Below are positions 4,071-62,258 of a DNA stretch of 64,000 bases, piece by piece. The stretch spans positions 26,751 through 90,750 of the forward strand of contig JBAYVE010000004.1 in NCBI GenBank assembly GCA_041674765.1, in the 5' to 3' direction. The DNA is from Patescibacteria group bacterium (lineage in GTDB: Bacteria; Patescibacteriota; UBA1384; XYA2-FULL-43-10; 1-14-0-10-43-13). The notes under the pieces were generated by a model. That model had not been told where the DNA came from, made no database searches, and saw nothing but the letters and a program-made list of their open reading frames with translations. How positions within the stretch are numbered: position 1 is the stretch's first letter; each line of letters begins with the position of its first letter. The translations under genes and the position numbers were made by a program.

Positions 4071-4172
4071 GTTCTGAATTTTGTGAAAATCAAGCCGAGT
4101 CCCTTTCGTAGCTTTAGCGAAGGGGGACGGTTCTGGTAAGAAATATAAGAAATGCAACGGGAAATAACATAT

Positions 4173-4267
4173 CTACCTCACCTAGCCTCTCCTAAACTAG
4201 GAGAGGGATTAAACAGGATCATTGCAATTATTTCCCCTCCTGGATCAGGAGGGGTTAGGGGAGGTAG
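4173..4267. mobile_element. MITE-like hairpin repeat block (left copy) with ctacctc...gaggtag termini
   Basis: ctacctcacctagcctctcctaaactaggagagggat + second hairpin cccctcctggatcaggagggg; 37-bp core identical to 4630-4666. Confidence 0.7.
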
Positions 4268-4788: not shown

Positions 4789-5544
4789 TTATTTATTCTT
4801 ATCGGGACAAAGATCCCAAATTAAACGGAACCAAGTTCTATAGGTTTCTGCGAGTTCCGGATTAATCATGACAAAGATTGTGCCGTCCTCGCCGAAATTG
4901 CCAATGCCAACACTAGTAAAGGTAACGACATAATCTCCGAAAACATCGGTGACCCCTGGGGCTTCGTAGCCTTTGGGTAAAATTTTATATTCACCTCCGA
5001 CATTTTTGAGCGCCTCTGGCAGCTCTTTTTTGACTCTGGGATCGTAAAGAGTGTAATATTTCTTACCCTTTCTGGTCATCGCATCCTTATAGTCATCCAA
5101 ATACTGTTTCTCGACCCAGGGGGTAAACCAGAGGCCCTTGGCACCAAGAAAATAGGTATCCTCCGCCACATTGGCCATATCTCGAAGGTAATTTTTGTAG
5201 CCCTCTTTGCCCTTGTAAATAAAGGCGGCTTCTTTTTGGGGCTCAGTTTCATACATTTTTTTTAATTCAGGCAAAATATTATTCAACTGCTCCGACTGTT
5301 TCTGAAGCATCTCCTGCAATTTATCAGGACTGACCGCTCGAAATTTATTCTCTTCTTTCTTGAAAATACGAAAAACAAGGCCCTTTTCGATAAGGCGATT
5401 GAGCGTATCGTAAACATTGCGCCTGTTAACATCGGCTTTGAGTGAAATTTCGGCTACGCCGATCTCATTGGAAGAGAGTAGCGCCTCATAAATTTTTGCT
5501 TCATTGGGCGAAAGCCCTAAGTTACTAAAGATCTCTGAATACAT
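4789..5544 (-). CDS. TrmB-family transcriptional regulator
   Basis: N-terminal winged HTH (LGLSPNEAKIYEALL..GVAEIS) plus C-terminal TrmB-like sugar-sensing domain length. Confidence 0.6.
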   Translation of the reverse strand: MYSEIFSNLGLSPNEAKIYEALLSSNEIGVAEISLKADVNRRNVYDTLNRLIEKGLVFRIFKKEENKFRAVSPDKLQEMLQKQSEQLNNILPELKKMYETEPQKEAAFIYKGKEGYKNYLRDMANVAEDTYFLGAKGLWFTPWVEKQYLDDYKDAMTRKGKKYYTLYDPRVKKELPEALKNVGGEYKILPKGYEAPGVTDVFGDYVVTFTSVGIGNFGEDGTIFVMINPELAETYRTWFRLIWDLCPDKNK

Positions 5545-12583: not shown

Positions 12584-12587
12584 TTCA

Positions 12588-12700
12588 TCAAGTGCATAAA
12601 GCTAAAAGTTCATAAAGACTAAGGTTTGTAGAGTTAAAAGTTTGGAAAGTGCATAAGAACAAGAGTTCGTAAAGACTACTTTCCGTAGAGTCAGTCAGGA
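12588..12700. repeat. Two tandem ~55-bp units carrying the gtgcataaag/gttcataaagact motif
   Basis: gtgcataaagctaaaagttcataaagactaaggtttgtagagtta / gtgcataagaacaagagttcgtaaagactactttccgtagagtca; same motif at 18440, 23055 and inside prmC at 37640-37700. Confidence 0.65.
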
Positions 12701-23049: not shown

Positions 23050-25223
<2,174 letters not shown>

Positions 25224-36714: not shown

Positions 36715-37029
36715 ATGAAAATTCCCATTCATTCAGGATGGTTGGCTGTTGCAACGGCCATGGTGACACTCGCGGCCACGGGTGTAATACCGTGGTTGTG
36801 GATAGTGTGCTGGGCAGCGGTGTTTGTAGCCTTTTGGCTCATTACATCGCGTTTCGGGCTTCACAGAACGTGGGCCGCTGATCCTGCTTCAGTATCCATC
36901 ATCGCAGTTGTTGGCATCGTCCAAGCAGGATTGATTCTGCAGAACTACTCCTTCCAGGGACTGGTATTGGCCTTTGGAAATATGGTCATTATCAGCCTGT
37001 GCTGGCTAAACATTCGAAGATTCAGTTAG
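36715..37029 (+). CDS. small polytopic membrane protein (GC-rich, about 55%)
   Basis: 104 aa, 3-4 hydrophobic helices, W-rich; composition differs from the neighbouring genes. Confidence 0.45.
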   Translation: MKIPIHSGWLAVATAMVTLAATGVIPWLWIVCWAAVFVAFWLITSRFGLHRTWAADPASVSIIAVVGIVQAGLILQNYSFQGLVLAFGNMVIISLCWLNIRRFS

Positions 37030-37092
37030 CCAGTCAGTTAGCCAGTATGTATAATGCTACCCCTCGCCCAACTAGGTGAGGGGACAGCTATA
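37030..37092. repeat. ttagccagtcagttagccagt direct repeat plus cccctcgcccaactaggtgagggg hairpin
   Basis: Read directly from the sequence. Confidence 0.6.
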
Positions 37093-38103
37093 TTAATAGC
37101 TAGATAACGATATTGTAAGATAACGATCAAGACCTGCAAGGTCTTTTTTTAGTTCTATTTTTGCGGTTGGATAGTGATAGTGTGAAAATTTTTCTATCTC
37201 CATAGCATTTCTGGGATCAAGTTCAATTAAAATCGTACCATCTTCAGCAAGGTGGTTTCGGGCTTGCGCTAGAAATCGTTTGATTATCTCTGAACCATTG
37301 TCGTCGGCAAAGATTGCATTTTGGGGTTCAAACTTAACCGTATTATGTATTATGTATTTGGTATTATGAGTTTCCAGCTCATTGCTTAATACTTTATACT
37401 CACACTTTGATACCAGCTTCGGGACATACGGCAAGTTGGCGATAATAAGATCAAACCCGCCTGACGGCGAGGCAGGCTTTTTATGAAGTTGATGATTTTG
37501 GAATAAGTCAGAATGAATAAATTTAATCGTATTGTTCGAGCACAAGCGAGAACCAGCTTGGTTTGATAGTTCTCGGCCTCTGGCCTCGAACAATAACTTC
37601 TTTGCATTCTTCCTGGCCATTTTCAGGGCTTTTGCAGAAATATCGGAGGCGTATAAGTTTATAAAGTTGGAAAGTTCATAAAGTTCATCAAGTTTTTTGG
37701 CCAGTGAGATGATGAGGCAGCCGGAGCCGGTACCAAGGTCTAAAATTTTCAATTTACAATTTACAATTTTCAATTTTTTCTGAAGGACTTCAACCGCTTG
37801 TTCTACCAAAAATTCACTTTCGGGGCGGGGGATAAGGACATCGGGCGTTACCAGAAATTCGTACCCGAAAAATTCTTTTTTTCCGGTAAGATAGACAATC
37901 GGTACATTGTTTTGGCGTTTTTTCAACAATTTCTGGAATTTATTAATTTGGCTCTTTGACGGCTCGAACTCAGGATGGCTCAGAAGGAACGTCTTGTCTT
38001 TGCTAGTCGCGTATGACAAAAGAACCTGAACATCGAGTTCGGGAGAGGCACTTACCTCTTTGAGTTTGAGGACGGATTGAGAATATAGTTTCTTCAGGTT
38101 CAT
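37093..38103 (-). CDS. prmC: release-factor glutamine N5-methyltransferase PrmC/HemK, carrying repeat-derived in-frame insertions
   Basis: DLGTGSGC and NLPYVP (NPPY) motifs; located downstream of prfA; extra segments encoded by hairpin/repeat DNA (37440-37470, 37540-37600, 37640-37700, 37745-37790). Confidence 0.8.
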   Translation of the reverse strand: MNLKKLYSQSVLKLKEVSASPELDVQVLLSYATSKDKTFLLSHPEFEPSKSQINKFQKLLKKRQNNVPIVYLTGKKEFFGYEFLVTPDVLIPRPESEFLVEQAVEVLQKKLKIVNCKLKILDLGTGSGCLIISLAKKLDELYELSNFINLYASDISAKALKMARKNAKKLLFEARGRELSNQAGSRLCSNNTIKFIHSDLFQNHQLHKKPASPSGGFDLIIANLPYVPKLVSKCEYKVLSNELETHNTKYIIHNTVKFEPQNAIFADDNGSEIIKRFLAQARNHLAEDGTILIELDPRNAMEIEKFSHYHYPTAKIELKKDLAGLDRYLTISLSSY

Positions 38104-38171
38104 GGATTAATTTTCAATTAATAATTTAAAATTTAGAAATATTTTTAAATTATTAAATTCTAAATTTTAAA

Positions 38172-39239
38172 TTATGACTGTGCTGCCAGCTTCCTTGCTT
38201 GGTCTTCGGTCATAAGGGCGTTAACTATCGGCTCGATATCGCCATCCATAATATTTGGCAGAGAGTGCCAAGATTGATTTATTCTGTGATCGGTAACACG
38301 ATCTTGAGGGAAATTGTAAGTTCTAATTTTTTCAGAACGATCCCCTGTCCCGACCTGAGAAAGACGCAAGTCCTTTCTTTCTTTTTGCAGTCGTTCTTCT
38401 TCGGCGGCCAAAATTCTTGAGCGGAGAATACTCATTGCCTTGTCTTTGTTCTTCATTTGGCTTCGTTCATCCTGACACTGCACTACAATGCCGGTAGGGA
38501 GGTGAGTGATTCGGACAGCGGAATACGTTGTGTTCACAGATTGTCCGCCAGCTCCTCCTGAGCAGAAGGTATCGATGCGGAGGTCTTCAGTTTTTATATT
38601 TATATCGGCCTCTTCTGCCTCAGGCAAGACAGCGACAGTAACGGTGGAAGTGTGGACTCTCCCCTGTTTTTCCGTTTCCGGCGTACGCTGAACACGGTGA
38701 ACTCCGCTTTCATATTTCATCTTCGAATATACTTTTTGTCCGCTGACTTCAAATGTGACTGACTTTAATCCGCCAATTCCCGTTGTTTGAGATTCCAAAA
38801 TGTTTGCCCGCCAACCTTGACGTTCGGCGAAGCGGGTATAAAGGCGGAATAACTCGGCGGCGAATAATTCTGATTCGTCTCCGCCCGCTCCTGGCCTTAT
38901 TTCAATAATAGAGTTTTTTTCATCGTTCGGATCTTTTGGCAGGAGAGCCAATTCCAACTCTTTCTCCATCTTGTCTTTCTTGGGATTTAGTCGGTTTATT
39001 TCTTCGTGCGCCATCTCTCTGAGTTCTTCGTCGCTAGAACTGATCATCTCTTCGCTATCGGAGATATTCTTGAGTACGCTAAAATAAGAATTGATTAATT
39101 GTGCAAGATCATCAAGACTGGATTTCTCTCTTGCAATTTTAGTGAATTCTGCATTATTGGCTTGAATTTCAGGCCTCTCTAAGCTTGCTGAGAGTTCGTT
39201 GTATCTGTCTAAAATTTTTTGTAGTTTTTCTTTATTCAT
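38172..39239 (-). CDS. prfA: peptide chain release factor 1
   Basis: GGQ motif ([18 protein letters not shown]), PxT-like decoding region. Confidence 0.95.
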
Positions 39240-39322: not shown

Positions 39323-39415
39323 GTAATTAAAAAGCCAGCCTTTATCTCAATAATTATATTATAAAGATTTTGGGCCGACTTTAATACCCGCCTGCCGGCG
39401 AGGCAGGTAGAGTAG

Positions 39416-39700
39416 CTATTTGTCTTCTGTTTTTTTCTCTTCTTTGGCAGGTTTGGCTGCTTTTACGGCTTCCTTTTTGGCTGCCTCTTCTTTCATCTTT
39501 TTGGAAGCTTCCATTCTGGCCTTGAATTTATCTACTCTGCCGGCTGTATCAACAAGTTTCTGCTTGCCGGTGAAGAATGGATGACATTGAGAACAAATTT
39601 CAACACTAATATCGTCCCTGGTTGATCCGGCGGAAAATTTGGCTCCACAGGCGCAGGAAATAGTGATATCTTTGTAATTTGGGTGGGTATTTTTTTTCAT
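39416..39700 (-). CDS. rpmE: 50S ribosomal protein L31 with K/E-rich C-terminal tail
   Basis: [25 protein letters not shown]. Confidence 0.9.
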
Positions 39701-41022: not shown

Positions 41023-41619
41023 ATGTCAAATATTACAGCAAAACAAATCGCAGATTTGAGAGCCAAAACAGGCATAGGAATGATGGAATGCAAGAACGCT
41101 CTTGTCGAGGCCGGCGGTAATGAAGAAAAAGCGATGGAAATCCTTCGCAAAAAAGGTGCAGCCAAGGCAGCTAAAAGATCCGAAAGGGAGACAAAAAACG
41201 GAATCATCGAATCATATATACATGCCGGTGGAAAAATCGGTGTAATGGTTGAAGTGCTCGCCGAGACAGATTTTGTCGCAAAAAACGAAGAGTTCAAAGA
41301 GTTTGCGCACGACGTTGCTCTTCATATCGCTGCGATGGCGCCGAAATTTGTTAGTCGTGACGAGGTCCCTGCAGAAGAAGTCGCAAAAGAAAGAGAAATC
41401 CTTCTCGAAGAAGTAAAAGCTTCTGGTAAGCCTGAGAATATTGCTGAAAAAATTGTAGAGGGCAGACTTTCAAAATTCTATAGTGAAATTTGTCTACTCG
41501 AACAATCTTTCGTCAAGAATCCGGACTTAACTATAAATGACCTTTTGAATGAAAAAATTTCTAAGATCGGCGAGAAAATCGTTATCTCAAGATTTTGTCG
41601 GTTTGAAATTGGAGCATAG
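41023..41619 (+). CDS. tsf: elongation factor Ts (short form)
   Basis: ITAKQIADLRAKTGIGMMECKNALVEAGG UBA-like N-terminus. Confidence 0.9.
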   Translation: MSNITAKQIADLRAKTGIGMMECKNALVEAGGNEEKAMEILRKKGAAKAAKRSERETKNGIIESYIHAGGKIGVMVEVLAETDFVAKNEEFKEFAHDVALHIAAMAPKFVSRDEVPAEEVAKEREILLEEVKASGKPENIAEKIVEGRLSKFYSEICLLEQSFVKNPDLTINDLLNEKISKIGEKIVISRFCRFEIGA

Positions 41620-41620
41620 A

Positions 41621-41712
41621 ATAGTGGAATGTAGAATGTGGAATGTAGAACGTGGAAGGGGGAACGTGGAATGGGCGATGGGGAACGGGGCAGAACGGGG
41701 GAAAGAATGGAA
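41621..41712. repeat. Purine-rich degenerate tandem repeat, second locus (ggaatgtagaatgtggaatgtagaacgtggaagggggaacgtggaatggg...)
   Basis: Shares ggaatgtagaacgtgga and gggaacgtggaatggg with 301-455. Confidence 0.8.
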
Positions 41713-45684: not shown

Positions 45685-45960
45685 TTCCTGAACCGACGCC
45701 AGTCGTCCGTACTCGATGCGGGATCTGCATCTTGATTCAGAATCAAATTCATTTATTGTTCGAGCTTGTCGAGAACTATTTGCTGTTTTTTCTTCTCTTT
45801 GAGGACAAGGGGACTCATTCCGAAGTCGTCCCCCTATCCTCAAACACCAACCCCCTACACGGTATAGAGGTATTCTTCTCTTTTATAAAAAATTGAACTC
45901 CTTTTAGTCGCCCTTCGGGTAAGTAATTTTTTATGTAGGAGAAGAATTATCTGTATAAAA
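45685..45960. repeat. MITE-like repeat cluster (gggatctgcatcttgattcagaatc; gaggacaaggggactcattccgaagtcg; cccctacacgg...)
   Basis: Modules shared with 23115-23145, 36430-36480 and 20590-20640. Confidence 0.75.
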
Positions 45961-55935: not shown

Positions 55936-56193
55936 AATATTACGAATTAACAGTGCAATTTTTCTTAATTCTTTGTTTAAATCAACATAATGTTATTCAC
56001 TGATCAGTAAGCCAATACCCTTTTAATCGTGATTCCCTAAAACCCTATTAAATGTATTTATTCTTCGAATGGTGCTCTTAAAAATGAGAAGTCTGTTACT
56101 GTATTAATAAGTGACCATAGTTCTCGTCGTTCCTCCTCGAACAATAAGGAACAGGGAAATAGTAAGGTTTTCGGGATCACGTTCTTTTACCTA

Positions 56194-60911: not shown

Positions 60912-61769
60912 ATGACAATACAACAATCGTCGCCTGATAAAACAGTCTTACAAGTCATAGACGTTAAGTCAGAGTTAATTAGAGCCAGACGTGAACATTA
61001 TGCAATCGGGGCTTTCAATACCAATAATCTCGAGGTGACGAAAGCAATCTGTCAGGCTGCCACCAAATTTGATGCGCCCATTTTGGTCCAGACAACACCA
61101 TCGGCGATCGAATATGCTGGATTAAGGCAGATTTTTGATATCATAACAACGGAAATTATAAACACCAAAATCAAGGCAGCAATTCATTTGGATCATGCCA
61201 AAGATTTTTCAATTATTTCTCATGCTATACGAGCCGGCTATCGGTCTATTATGTTTGATGGGTCAAAGTTGCCATACCGTGAAAACGTTCATTTAACATC
61301 GAAAGTGGTAAATTTTGCTCATAGCTATGGAGCGTCAGTGGAGGCCGAGATTGGTGTTATCTCTCATGAAGAGGGTGGGCATCTTTCTGGTAAAGCAGAA
61401 TTGAGCTCACCTTTGCAGGTCAAGGAATTTGTCAAACTGACCGGAGTTGATTCCATTGCAGTCTCAGTTGGGAATGAACATGGCGCTCCAAAGGGCGAAC
61501 ATGTTGATTTCAATCTGTTGGAGAAAATTTCTTTAGCAGTGGATATTCCTCTAGTCATGCACGGAGCCTCCGGTTTGACGGCAGGAGACATCCGGGAGGC
61601 GATCTCCTTTGGCGTCGCCAAGTTCAATATCGACACTAAAATCAAGAAGGTTTTTACCCATGAACTCGAAACCTCCGAAGCTTCCGATTATCGAGATGCG
61701 ATGAAGGAGGGAATGGCGGAAGTGGAAAAAGTCGTTGAGAATTATATAAAGCTTTTTTCAAATAACTGA
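60912..61769 (+). CDS. fba: class II fructose-bisphosphate aldolase
   Basis: IHLDHAKDF, MHGASG. Confidence 0.85.
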   Translation: MTIQQSSPDKTVLQVIDVKSELIRARREHYAIGAFNTNNLEVTKAICQAATKFDAPILVQTTPSAIEYAGLRQIFDIITTEIINTKIKAAIHLDHAKDFSIISHAIRAGYRSIMFDGSKLPYRENVHLTSKVVNFAHSYGASVEAEIGVISHEEGGHLSGKAELSSPLQVKEFVKLTGVDSIAVSVGNEHGAPKGEHVDFNLLEKISLAVDIPLVMHGASGLTAGDIREAISFGVAKFNIDTKIKKVFTHELETSEASDYRDAMKEGMAEVEKVVENYIKLFSNN

Positions 61770-61847
61770 TTGCAAATCACAAATAACAATTACCAAATTA
61801 CAAATAAATCACAAATCTAAAATCACGAATCTAACACAAACGAACAG

Positions 61848-62198
61848 ATGGCTAATTCTGAAAAAATATATGATCTTGAGGAAAGGACTTTTATATTTGC
61901 TAGGAATACGGTTATTCTCATTAAAAAACTACCTAAAACAATATCAAATATCGAATATGGCAAACAAGTAATCCGGTCTTCCGCTTCAACAGGCGCAAAC
62001 TATATTGAAGCGAATGAAGCTTTGGGTAAGAAAGATTTCCTTATGAGGATTAAAATCTCCCGCAAAGAAGCGAAGGAATCGGCTTTCTGGTTTAGGCTTC
62101 TGAAAGAAACCAATTCAAATTTTGCTCAAGAGCTAGAATCATTACTGAATGAGGCTACTGAGTTGAAAAAAATATTTTCATCAATGCTTGGAAATTGA
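61848..62198 (+). CDS. four-helix-bundle protein (23S rRNA-IVS / Avd-like family), copy 3
   Basis: STGANYIEANEALGKKDF..SRKEAKESAFWF. Confidence 0.75.
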   Translation: MANSEKIYDLEERTFIFARNTVILIKKLPKTISNIEYGKQVIRSSASTGANYIEANEALGKKDFLMRIKISRKEAKESAFWFRLLKETNSNFAQELESLLNEATELKKIFSSMLGN

Positions 62199-62258
62199 TA
62201 TACTTTGGGAGTTGTTATTTATTTGTAATTTGGTATTTGGGATTTGGAGTTTAGAAAT

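Follow-up and report, generated by a model that had tools for sequence, protein, structure and literature searches.

The window analysed here is a stretch of 64,000 nucleotides from a Patescibacteria contig (JBAYVE010000004.1). It carries a prmC gene whose extra segments coincide with repeat DNA that is also found in the intergenic spacers. The gene and its repeat-bearing segments, here called A to E, are as follows.

37093-38103, minus strand: prmC (release-factor glutamine N5-methyltransferase), an intact open reading frame (ORF) of 336 aa that ends an rpmE-prfA-prmC run
37339-37419, minus strand: segment E, the variable loop after NLPYVP, residues 229-255, with GTATTAT x4.1 at 37340-37368
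37456-37476, minus strand: insert A, a 21-nt GC-rich hairpin, CCTGCCTCGCCGTCAGGCGGG, encoding PASPSGG, residues 210-216
37530-37595: insert B, a 66-nt nested palindrome with TA at both ends, encoding LLFEARGRELSNQAGSRLCSNN, residues 170-191
37655-37694: array C, unit AAGTTCATA, period 9, 4.6 copies, within KLDELYELSNFINLY, residues 137-151
37744-37777: array D, heptamer AATTTTC/AATTTAC x4.9, 92% matches, within KKLKIVNCKLKIL, residues 109-121, just before LDLGTGSG

Related copies lie between genes elsewhere in the window.

39387-39407, minus strand: second copy of the 21-mer, intergenic, beginning 9 nt past the rpmE stop codon, an exact match to the cross-phylum consensus
12585-12680, plus strand: intergenic array of the AAGT[TG]CATAAAG motif family, from the motif and tandem-repeat scan
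23057-23097, plus strand: intergenic array of the AAGTTCATAAAG motif family, with AGTTTATAAAGTT and GGAAAGTT in common with the prmC array
45753-45800, plus strand: B-family copy, truncated, degenerate and intergenic, TATTGTTCGAG-CTTGT-CGAGAACTA...
56058-56147, minus strand: B-family copy, degenerate and intergenic, TATTGTTCGAG-GAGGAACGA-CGAGAACTA ... TTCGAAGAATA

An earlier note on this DNA had described four of the prmC segments as in-frame insertions made of intergenic repeat motifs. All four are present and non-random, and the interpretation given in the note is supported. The hairpin had been placed at 37440-37470, slightly off its actual position, and its intergenic partner is the copy downstream of rpmE. 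The palindrome expected in 37540-37600 is present at 37547-37575 as the inner stem of the larger palindrome B. The AAGTTCATAAAG motif family noted at 37640-37700 corresponds to array C (10 matches in the window vs 1.1 expected, three overlapping ones forming the array), and the heptamers noted at 37745-37790 are those of array D. The GTATTAT array of segment E is a fifth one beyond these four. The coincidence with intergenic DNA was likewise recovered: besides the copies of A and B listed above, C recurs in two intergenic arrays and heptamer arrays occur at many intergenic loci of the window. The term insertion stands for A, which 27 of 30 aligned orthologues lack, and falls for C, as this segment is not longer than in orthologues of the Candidate Phyla Radiation (CPR); its loop is rebuilt from a different short tandem repeat in each lineage.

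The identity of the gene is well supported. rpmE (39416-39700), prfA (38172-39239) and prmC follow each other on one strand, with prfA immediately upstream of prmC, and this synteny, including the linkage to prfA that is expected of a PrmC gene, is also found in relatives. The whole protein scores 211.3 bits against the PrmC equivalog model TIGR03534, above the curated cutoff of 199.1, and matches the PrmC_N domain PF17827 at 1.5e-13. An identical protein (P0001) stems from a Patescibacteria metagenome-assembled genome (MAG) record, the next-nearest homologue is approximately 50% identical, and homologue lengths range from 280 to 402 aa. Residues 24-329 (306 aa) span just 252 positions of the TIGR03534 profile, and thus the window PrmC holds about 54 extra residues. 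The S-adenosylmethionine (SAM) motif LDLGTGSG and the catalytic N-L-P-Y-V-P show no variation across 30 of 30 CPR orthologues, which agrees with the claim that frame and motifs are kept. The catalytic motif itself (37426-37437, residues 223-226) reads NLPY, the canonical form being NPPY; since NLPYVP is invariant in the 30 orthologues, this clade uses NLPY instead of NPPY.

An AlphaFold2 (AF2) model of the protein, built on the 30 orthologues, reaches a mean predicted local distance difference test score (pLDDT) of 83. Its best match in the PDB is 2b3t_A, the E. coli PrmC in the RF1 complex (template modelling score 0.89, target-normalised; E = 2e-22). Mapped onto this model, the extra segments fall in variable PrmC loops, mostly of low confidence: pLDDT is <50 at residues 177-189 (in B) and 231-255 (the loop after NLPY), and approximately 77-80 around residues 205-216, the site of A. 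Judged from sequence and model, prmC most likely encodes a working PrmC, in which the inserts are presumably surface-exposed and the activity is retained.

Insert A belongs to a 21-mer, CCCGCCTG[A/C]CGGCGAGGCAGG, which has exactly two occurrences in the window and not a single match in 100 window shuffles. Two 7-nt inverted arms, CCTGCCT and AGGCGGG, enclose a 7-nt centre, CGCCGKC, into which the recurrent G/T variant falls; the sequence can pair as a 7-bp stem with a 7-nt loop or alternatively as 6 bp with a 5-nt loop. Folding yields -14.3 kcal/mol (z = -3.2) for the prmC copy and -14.8 kcal/mol (z = -3.3) for the copy at 39387-39407. A consensus scan flags the prmC copy as terminator-like on the sense strand, yet it lies inside an ORF; the copy after rpmE has no U-tract.

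The orthologue alignment, proposed in the earlier note as a means to delimit the inserts, resolves A as exactly seven extra codons, CCT GCC TCG CCG TCA GGC GGG, between AAAAAG and TTT. This site is also filled in two orthologues, P0006, with an insert 20/21 nt identical to the window copy, and P0002, with one that is 19/21 identical. Gene-wide nucleotide identity among the three carriers is 0.58-0.59, and third-position identity at conserved residues is approximately 0.5; the conservation of the insert against this background has P = 2.5e-4 to 1.3e-3. A neighbour-joining tree built on 276 conserved columns groups the three carriers in 0 of 300 bootstraps, and P0007, the sister of the window PrmC, has neither A nor B. 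A single ancestral origin of A in PrmC is therefore unsupported by this tree, which is drawn from one short protein and poorly resolved. The earlier note took segments shared among orthologues as a sign of ancestry. Sharing is literally found for A and B, yet it does not speak against a repeat origin here, because the inserts are 19-20/21 identical while the genes are 58-59% identical, and because the carriers are never monophyletic and the elements also occur in unrelated genes. Other PrmC homologues hold the 21-mer or close variants in other loops and other frames: P0017 has two (LPCRQAG and CLAGRQA), P0034 has RLPDRQV, P0097 has PASPAGG, and in P0003 an inverted 21-nt variant is nested within B.

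Beyond PrmC, a scan of one genome per GTDB species with the pattern CCTRCCTCGCCGKCAGGCGGG found the 21-mer in at least 120 genome stretches. Most of the matches listed lie at a GC content of 0.33-0.50; chance would provide about one match or fewer, even if the whole database had this composition. The carriers are spread over many classes of Patescibacteria and are also found in Bacteroidota, where the isolates Aureibaculum and Agriterribacter are among them, in Acidobacteriota, with long-read contigs that reach 2.5 Mb, and in Omnitrophota, Planctomycetota and further groups. The flanks are unrelated from match to match, and a flank logo of 93 matches exhibits a pyrimidine at +1 (C 52%, T 34%), weak T and A at -2 and -1, and nothing else. 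Among the matches listed, 64% lie in stop-free spans of at least 150 codons vs 83% of control positions, and the PASPAGG frame is favoured (36 of 81 in-ORF matches, P = 5e-9), while unrelated genes, all six frames and both orientations are represented. Aligned to sequences of solved structures, the 21-mer in UvrB and Era corresponds to an exact gap of 7 residues; further hosts recognised by eye are UvrA, TopA, QueA, YchF, GreA, a class I aminoacyl-tRNA synthetase, RluA, P-type ATPases and DinB. Compared with control positions, the 21-mer more frequently occupies the apex of inverted repeats that are specific to the host, and likewise lies inside short tandem arrays. Its deletion from an array restores the heptamer phase, and elsewhere restores the orthologue sequence; no target-site duplication was seen in the array, PrmC, UvrB and Era comparisons.

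A separate case is TrmH of Aureibaculum. One species has the exact 21-mer, two species have a 21-nt insert at the equivalent site that differs at 6-8 positions, and the insert is precisely absent from six close relatives at 77-84% identity (three further homologues besides A. algae, A. conchae and A. marinum). Both this exact copy beside diverged ones and the finding of A in three lineages that are not sisters, each time at the same codon boundary, suggest either a strong target specificity or a process that rewrites copies to the consensus.

Two further arrangements of the 21-mer were observed. In a Planctomycetia MAG (L068, approximately 5402-5464) a histidine kinase has two full and one partial T-variant copies in its HATPase loop, where they stand in tandem and in frame as PASPSGG PASPSGG PASPSG. 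Four Acidobacteriota stretches (L044, L055, L126 with two copies, and L129) share a longer repeat family with about 90 nt of common flanks, arms CCCGGCAC.../...GTGCCGGG and the exact 21-mer at the apex, which suggests that the 21-mer was inserted into, or is part of, a larger lineage-specific element.

Several candidate origins of the 21-mer were set aside. A virus or plasmid vector was rejected: IMG/VR provided 1 match in 2.9 million viral contigs, and a BLAST search with a 42-nt dimer against PLSDB and INPHARED gave partial matches essentially at chance level, mostly in GC-rich taxa, next to a few short matches of at least 99% identity. No Rfam family reached its gathering score anywhere in the window. 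To our knowledge, the 21-mer is no derivative of tRNA, rRNA, tmRNA, SRP RNA or RNase P RNA, and we know of no CRISPR repeat, integron attC, dif site, DNA-uptake sequence or 7-N7-7 operator that it would represent. A search of literature text with the 21-mer, its reverse complement and its six-frame peptides gave no paper, and broader searches on such repeats led just to work on the palindromic and miniature elements compared below. The cross-phylum 21-mer thus appears to be new to the literature.

Insert B has the layout TA-TTGTTCGAG-S1-CGAGAACTA-loop-GTTCTCG-S2-CTCGAACAA-TA, where CGAGAAC...GTTCTCG forms the inner hairpin at 37547-37575. Its terminal inverted repeats, TATTGTTCGAG / CTCGAACAATA, are 100% complementary over 11 nt, it folds at -30.1 kcal/mol (z = -5.6), and its size is exactly 22 codons. 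Many PrmC orthologues have an insert at this site with the invariant boxes TTGTTCGAG, CGAGAACT, AGTTCTCG and CTCGAACAA and different loops, while many of the 30 orthologues lack B. A metagenome scan with the B boxes found at least 119 stretches, which rules out B as a conserved structure specific to prmC. The following statistics refer to 104 unique full elements among the matches listed, with the left arm fixed by the search pattern. The arms recur across these elements, whose length ranges from 53 to 83 nt. Before the left arm stand T (100/104) and then A (95/104), and behind the right arm stands A (101/104), all of these being filled sites. About 27% lie in long ORFs and about 73% outside, the former including genes unrelated to prmC. 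On some contigs the copies are arranged as arrays. The lengths exhibit no overall bias to multiples of three, while all prmC copies are in frame, and the spacers S1 and S2 contain mini-hairpins more frequently than shuffled sequence. In ten loci compared with Rfam, no family covered the B elements; these loci gave a group I intron and tRNAs only. The intron (RF00028, 98.8 bits; L167 8055-8279) is located on a CPR-like metagenome contig with three B elements. Since the family is dispersed, with TA ends and intergenic copies, B is by its sequence features an element that resembles MITEs (miniature transposable elements with inverted repeats) and is not restricted to prmC.

Tandem arrays are approximately ten times commoner than in shuffled sequence, in the window and its relatives alike. 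The window contains 22 arrays with a score of at least 40, vs 2.1 in shuffles, and nine related loci contain 46 vs 4.5 expected. prmC, which covers 1.6% of the window, holds three of the 22 (P = 0.005), and in the relatives it holds 12 of the 46 (P = 1.4e-4). Periods of 7, 14 or 21 account for 10/22 arrays in the window and 22/46 in the relatives, where shuffles would provide about 0.3 to 0.5. Units are shared between loci: AAGTTCATA occurs at three window loci and in another loop of the P0026 prmC, on the opposite strand (L009 2171-2208), and the unit AGAATTA occurs in intergenic DNA of L010 and in the L011 prmC. The loop after the GxGxG helix carries a different short tandem repeat in each orthologue.

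P0003: ACTTACG (sense frame CTTACGA) x4.4
P0008: CAACAGC
P0004: TTCTACN
P0005: TCACTTGC
Window prmC: AACTTTATG-type, 9 nt

The loop of segment E is occupied in orthologues by other heptamer arrays or by GC-rich palindromes. Moreover, P0002, P0009, P0011, P0014, P0019, P0026 and P0031 have other GC-rich palindrome-derived peptides in equivalent PrmC loops (VIAR..LAMT, HSERSEES..ILRHAQND, DCHFD..ERS..EIS..RNDN, DSRFHGNDS), which look like further widespread hairpin repeat families.

Taken together, we propose that the repeats filling the intergenic spacers have repeatedly entered loops of prmC, and have done so independently in related lineages, a reading to which we assign a probability of roughly 0.7. 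Four permissive PrmC loops would act as a sink for repeats active in these genomes, namely the 21-nt hairpin, the 66-nt MITE-like palindrome, and short arrays of 7- and 9-nt units. Such repeats may be selfish or neutral. Within the gene, selection would act as a filter, so that surviving copies are those in a tolerant loop, with a total length divisible by three and without stop codons, and these would be translated as extra loop residues. We infer that the inserts are translated and harmless and that the elements are mobile at present. B might be mobilised in trans by a TA-targeting transposase, which is our best guess, and the arrays could grow by slippage. For the 21-mer we favour, as a guess of rather low confidence, that it forms a single-stranded DNA hairpin at the replication fork and is moved there in trans, be it in the manner of IS200/IS605 or of repetitive extragenic palindromic (REP) elements with their REP-associated tyrosine transposases (RAYT), or by a template switch.

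Several points weigh against this colonisation. The 21-mer is low-copy in this lineage, with 5 copies in 0.94 Mb of related CPR DNA not chosen for it, so that, without highly specific targeting, one would hardly expect it to have entered prmC three times independently at a single codon boundary. Alternatively, A may have been inserted once, long ago, and then been lost precisely several times. In B, the stems show no nucleotide change between orthologues while the loops differ, which could equally reflect selection on structure. Furthermore, an all-vs-all BLASTP of 1421 ORFs from 8-kb stretches around 21-mers revealed no protein family that recurs near them, just generally common ones (ABC transporters, kinases, tRNA synthetases and the like).

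Among the rival explanations, the one that survives best concerns the arrays. C, D and E could be purely local slippage products in an AT-rich, repair-poor genome, having only their low-complexity composition in common with the intergenic arrays, with nothing moving between loci. The different unit in the equivalent loop of each orthologue, the unstructured folding of the arrays, and their short and imperfect nature are all in agreement with this. On the other hand, units recur between loci and genomes (AAGTTCATA; GTAGAAC/GTGGAAC; AGAATTA), and non-triplet periods of 7 nt dominate even within the ORF, so that we regard slippage alone as unlikely, though still worth serious consideration.

Less probable, and by a clear step, are hairpins that act as functional cis elements of the rpmE-prfA-prmC transcript (to attenuate or terminate transcription, to be cut by an RNase or to bind a protein) under purifying selection. 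A and the stems of B are indeed conserved at synonymous positions in orthologues of about 50% identity, A with its flanking A-run and T-run folds to a 10-bp stem that received the terminator-like flag, and the second copy begins just behind rpmE. Against a cis element stand the 27 of 30 orthologues without A and the many without B, the occurrence of both in unrelated genes, for all six frames and both orientations, and the diverged TrmH-site insert in sister species; moreover, invariant stems give no covariation support, and no Rfam family matches.

That the extra segments are ordinary ancestral loop sequence kept for the protein, their likeness to intergenic repeats being coincidental, we consider very improbable. 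Recurring orthologue peptides (LLFE..REL..SR..SNN, NCKLKIL, PASPxGG) would fit, but the identity resides at the nucleotide level, synonymous sites included, the chance expectation for the 21-mer is about zero, and family members are located in non-coding DNA and unrelated proteins. An assembly artefact or pseudogene, e.g., a 21-mer from a k = 21 de Bruijn assembler, can practically be dismissed: the window does stem from a MAG and 21 is the smallest k of MEGAHIT and SPAdes, but the ORF is intact with conserved motifs, the inserts occur in independent assemblies by different tools, in long-read chromosomes and in isolate genomes, and an assembler or adapter artefact could not produce the diverged copies that sit at the orthologous site in TrmH.

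As a more far-reaching and tentative idea, for which we would give somewhat less than even odds, the 21-mer CCTGCCTCGCCG[G/T]CAGGCGGG could represent a new class of extremely short insertion elements, namely a hairpin of 7-7-7 layout whose entry is precise and without target duplication. If so, it would be an element with no coding capacity and no linked mobilisation gene, identical in at least five phyla and in frame in prmC, uvrB, era and trmH. Behind it would stand a conserved machinery acting in trans, perhaps a housekeeping one, by which the 21-mer is copied or rewritten, and the heptamer arrays that sometimes hold it might come from the same machinery.

From a biological point of view, Rickettsia is the best-known case of selfish repeats that colonise essential genes in frame; here, this would take place in the CPR, with several element types stacked within one 1-kb gene. 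Such inserts would account for some of the unusual variation in length among CPR proteins, as in PrmC with its 280-402 aa, and they can mislead gene callers, domain models and phylogenies. An identical 21-nt sequence, precisely inserted in housekeeping genes of unrelated phyla, is hard to explain by known mobile-DNA mechanisms. If its mobility is real, it points to an unrecognised, widespread DNA-insertion activity and provides a natural catalogue of insertion-tolerant loops in conserved proteins. Since cultured carriers exist (Aureibaculum sp. 2210JD6-5 and Agriterribacter humi YJ03), this mobility is open to experiment.

The surroundings of prmC contain further repeats. The spacer between prmC and prfA (38104-38171) is a 68-nt AT-only nested palindrome with the heptamer array TTTTAAA x4.3, and over 41 nt it is 78% identical to the heptamer array that lies in prmC. 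On the other side, a hairpin at 37060-37085 (CCCCTC...CTAGGTGAGGGG) separates prmC from the convergent ORF 36715-37029, and just before it a perfect 12-nt tandem duplication (TCAGTTAGCCAG x2, 37022-37046) extends across the stop codon of this ORF. The hairpin has the CCTCACCTAG/CTAGGTGAGG motif in common with a hairpin region at approximately 4176-4210 (within 4170-4215), and the two may represent another small repeat family. Heptamers of the GTAGAAC / GTGGAAC / GGGGAAC family form two separate intergenic arrays, 297-431 and 41617-41700, the latter followed by a GC hairpin with a T-run. An ORF of 116 aa (61848-62198) is located between inverted heptamer arrays, (CAAATNA)n upstream at 61769-61834 and (TNATTTG)n downstream at 62220-62247. 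Inspected by eye, it looks similar to the '23S rRNA intervening sequence' proteins, which are four-helix bundles (PF05635), and in the relative L010 a PF05635 gene (29-421) is likewise flanked by 14-nt arrays.

Comparable situations are known from several systems. Mobile GC clusters of yeast mitochondria and byp elements are short GC-rich hairpins in coding sequence of AT-rich genomes. Ribosomes skip the byp elements; here, they would simply read on in frame. Borg tandem repeats in ORFs have unit lengths divisible by three and provide extra or disordered protein segments; the 7-nt units found here are not divisible by three. The cyanobacterial short tandemly repeated repetitive (STRR) sequences, reportedly described by Mazel et al. 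in 1990 as tandem heptanucleotide units shared between intergenic loci, resemble the heptamer arrays of the window, which have a common unit at several intergenic loci (GTAGAAC type, 297-431 and 41617-41700). They differ in phylum and in units, and here arrays are also found inside an ORF, where three units make seven codons.

The closest parallels concern palindromic elements. The Rickettsia palindromic elements (RPE; Ogata et al. 2000, reviewed in PMC2229807), of approximately 100-150 bp and restricted to one genus, are likewise both intergenic and in frame in conserved housekeeping genes, where they are tolerated as extra peptide, and some have TA termini as B does (PMC2229807). In contrast, the elements described here have 21 and 66 nt, several unrelated repeat types occur in one gene, and the 21-mer is identical across phyla. 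With the TA-terminus MITEs (Correia/NEMIS, ERIC, RUP; PMC2229807), B has in common the terminal inverted repeats, the TA ends, the dispersed copies, the lack of coding capacity and the occasional in-frame fusions. It is smaller (53-83 nt), and it consists of four conserved boxes with highly variable spacers, whereas MITEs are near-identical copies of one master.

REP elements, mobilised by RAYT transposases, carry a GTAG or CGTC tetranucleotide tag at one end, and some copies are located inside genes, notably uvr and other DNA-repair genes (PMC3733652). Like these, the 21-mer belongs to the GC-rich hairpins of 20-40 nt that lie mostly downstream of genes and cause no target duplication, and its hosts UvrB, established by alignment, and UvrA, TopA and DinB, recognised by eye, recall the intragenic REPs of repair genes. 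It differs in that neither tag is present in the 21-mer or its flank logo (93 matches), in its low copy number in this lineage, and in that no RAYT gene was seen in the 8-kb stretches around the matches. While REPs are specific to a species or genus, the 21-mer is identical in Patescibacteria, Bacteroidota, Acidobacteriota, Omnitrophota and Planctomycetota, and a 21-nt element identical across phyla is not covered by the known families. The in-frame, stop-free persistence of the prmC inserts, as we interpret it, matches what is known of RPEs, in-frame MITEs and intragenic REPs (PMC2229807, PMC3733652).

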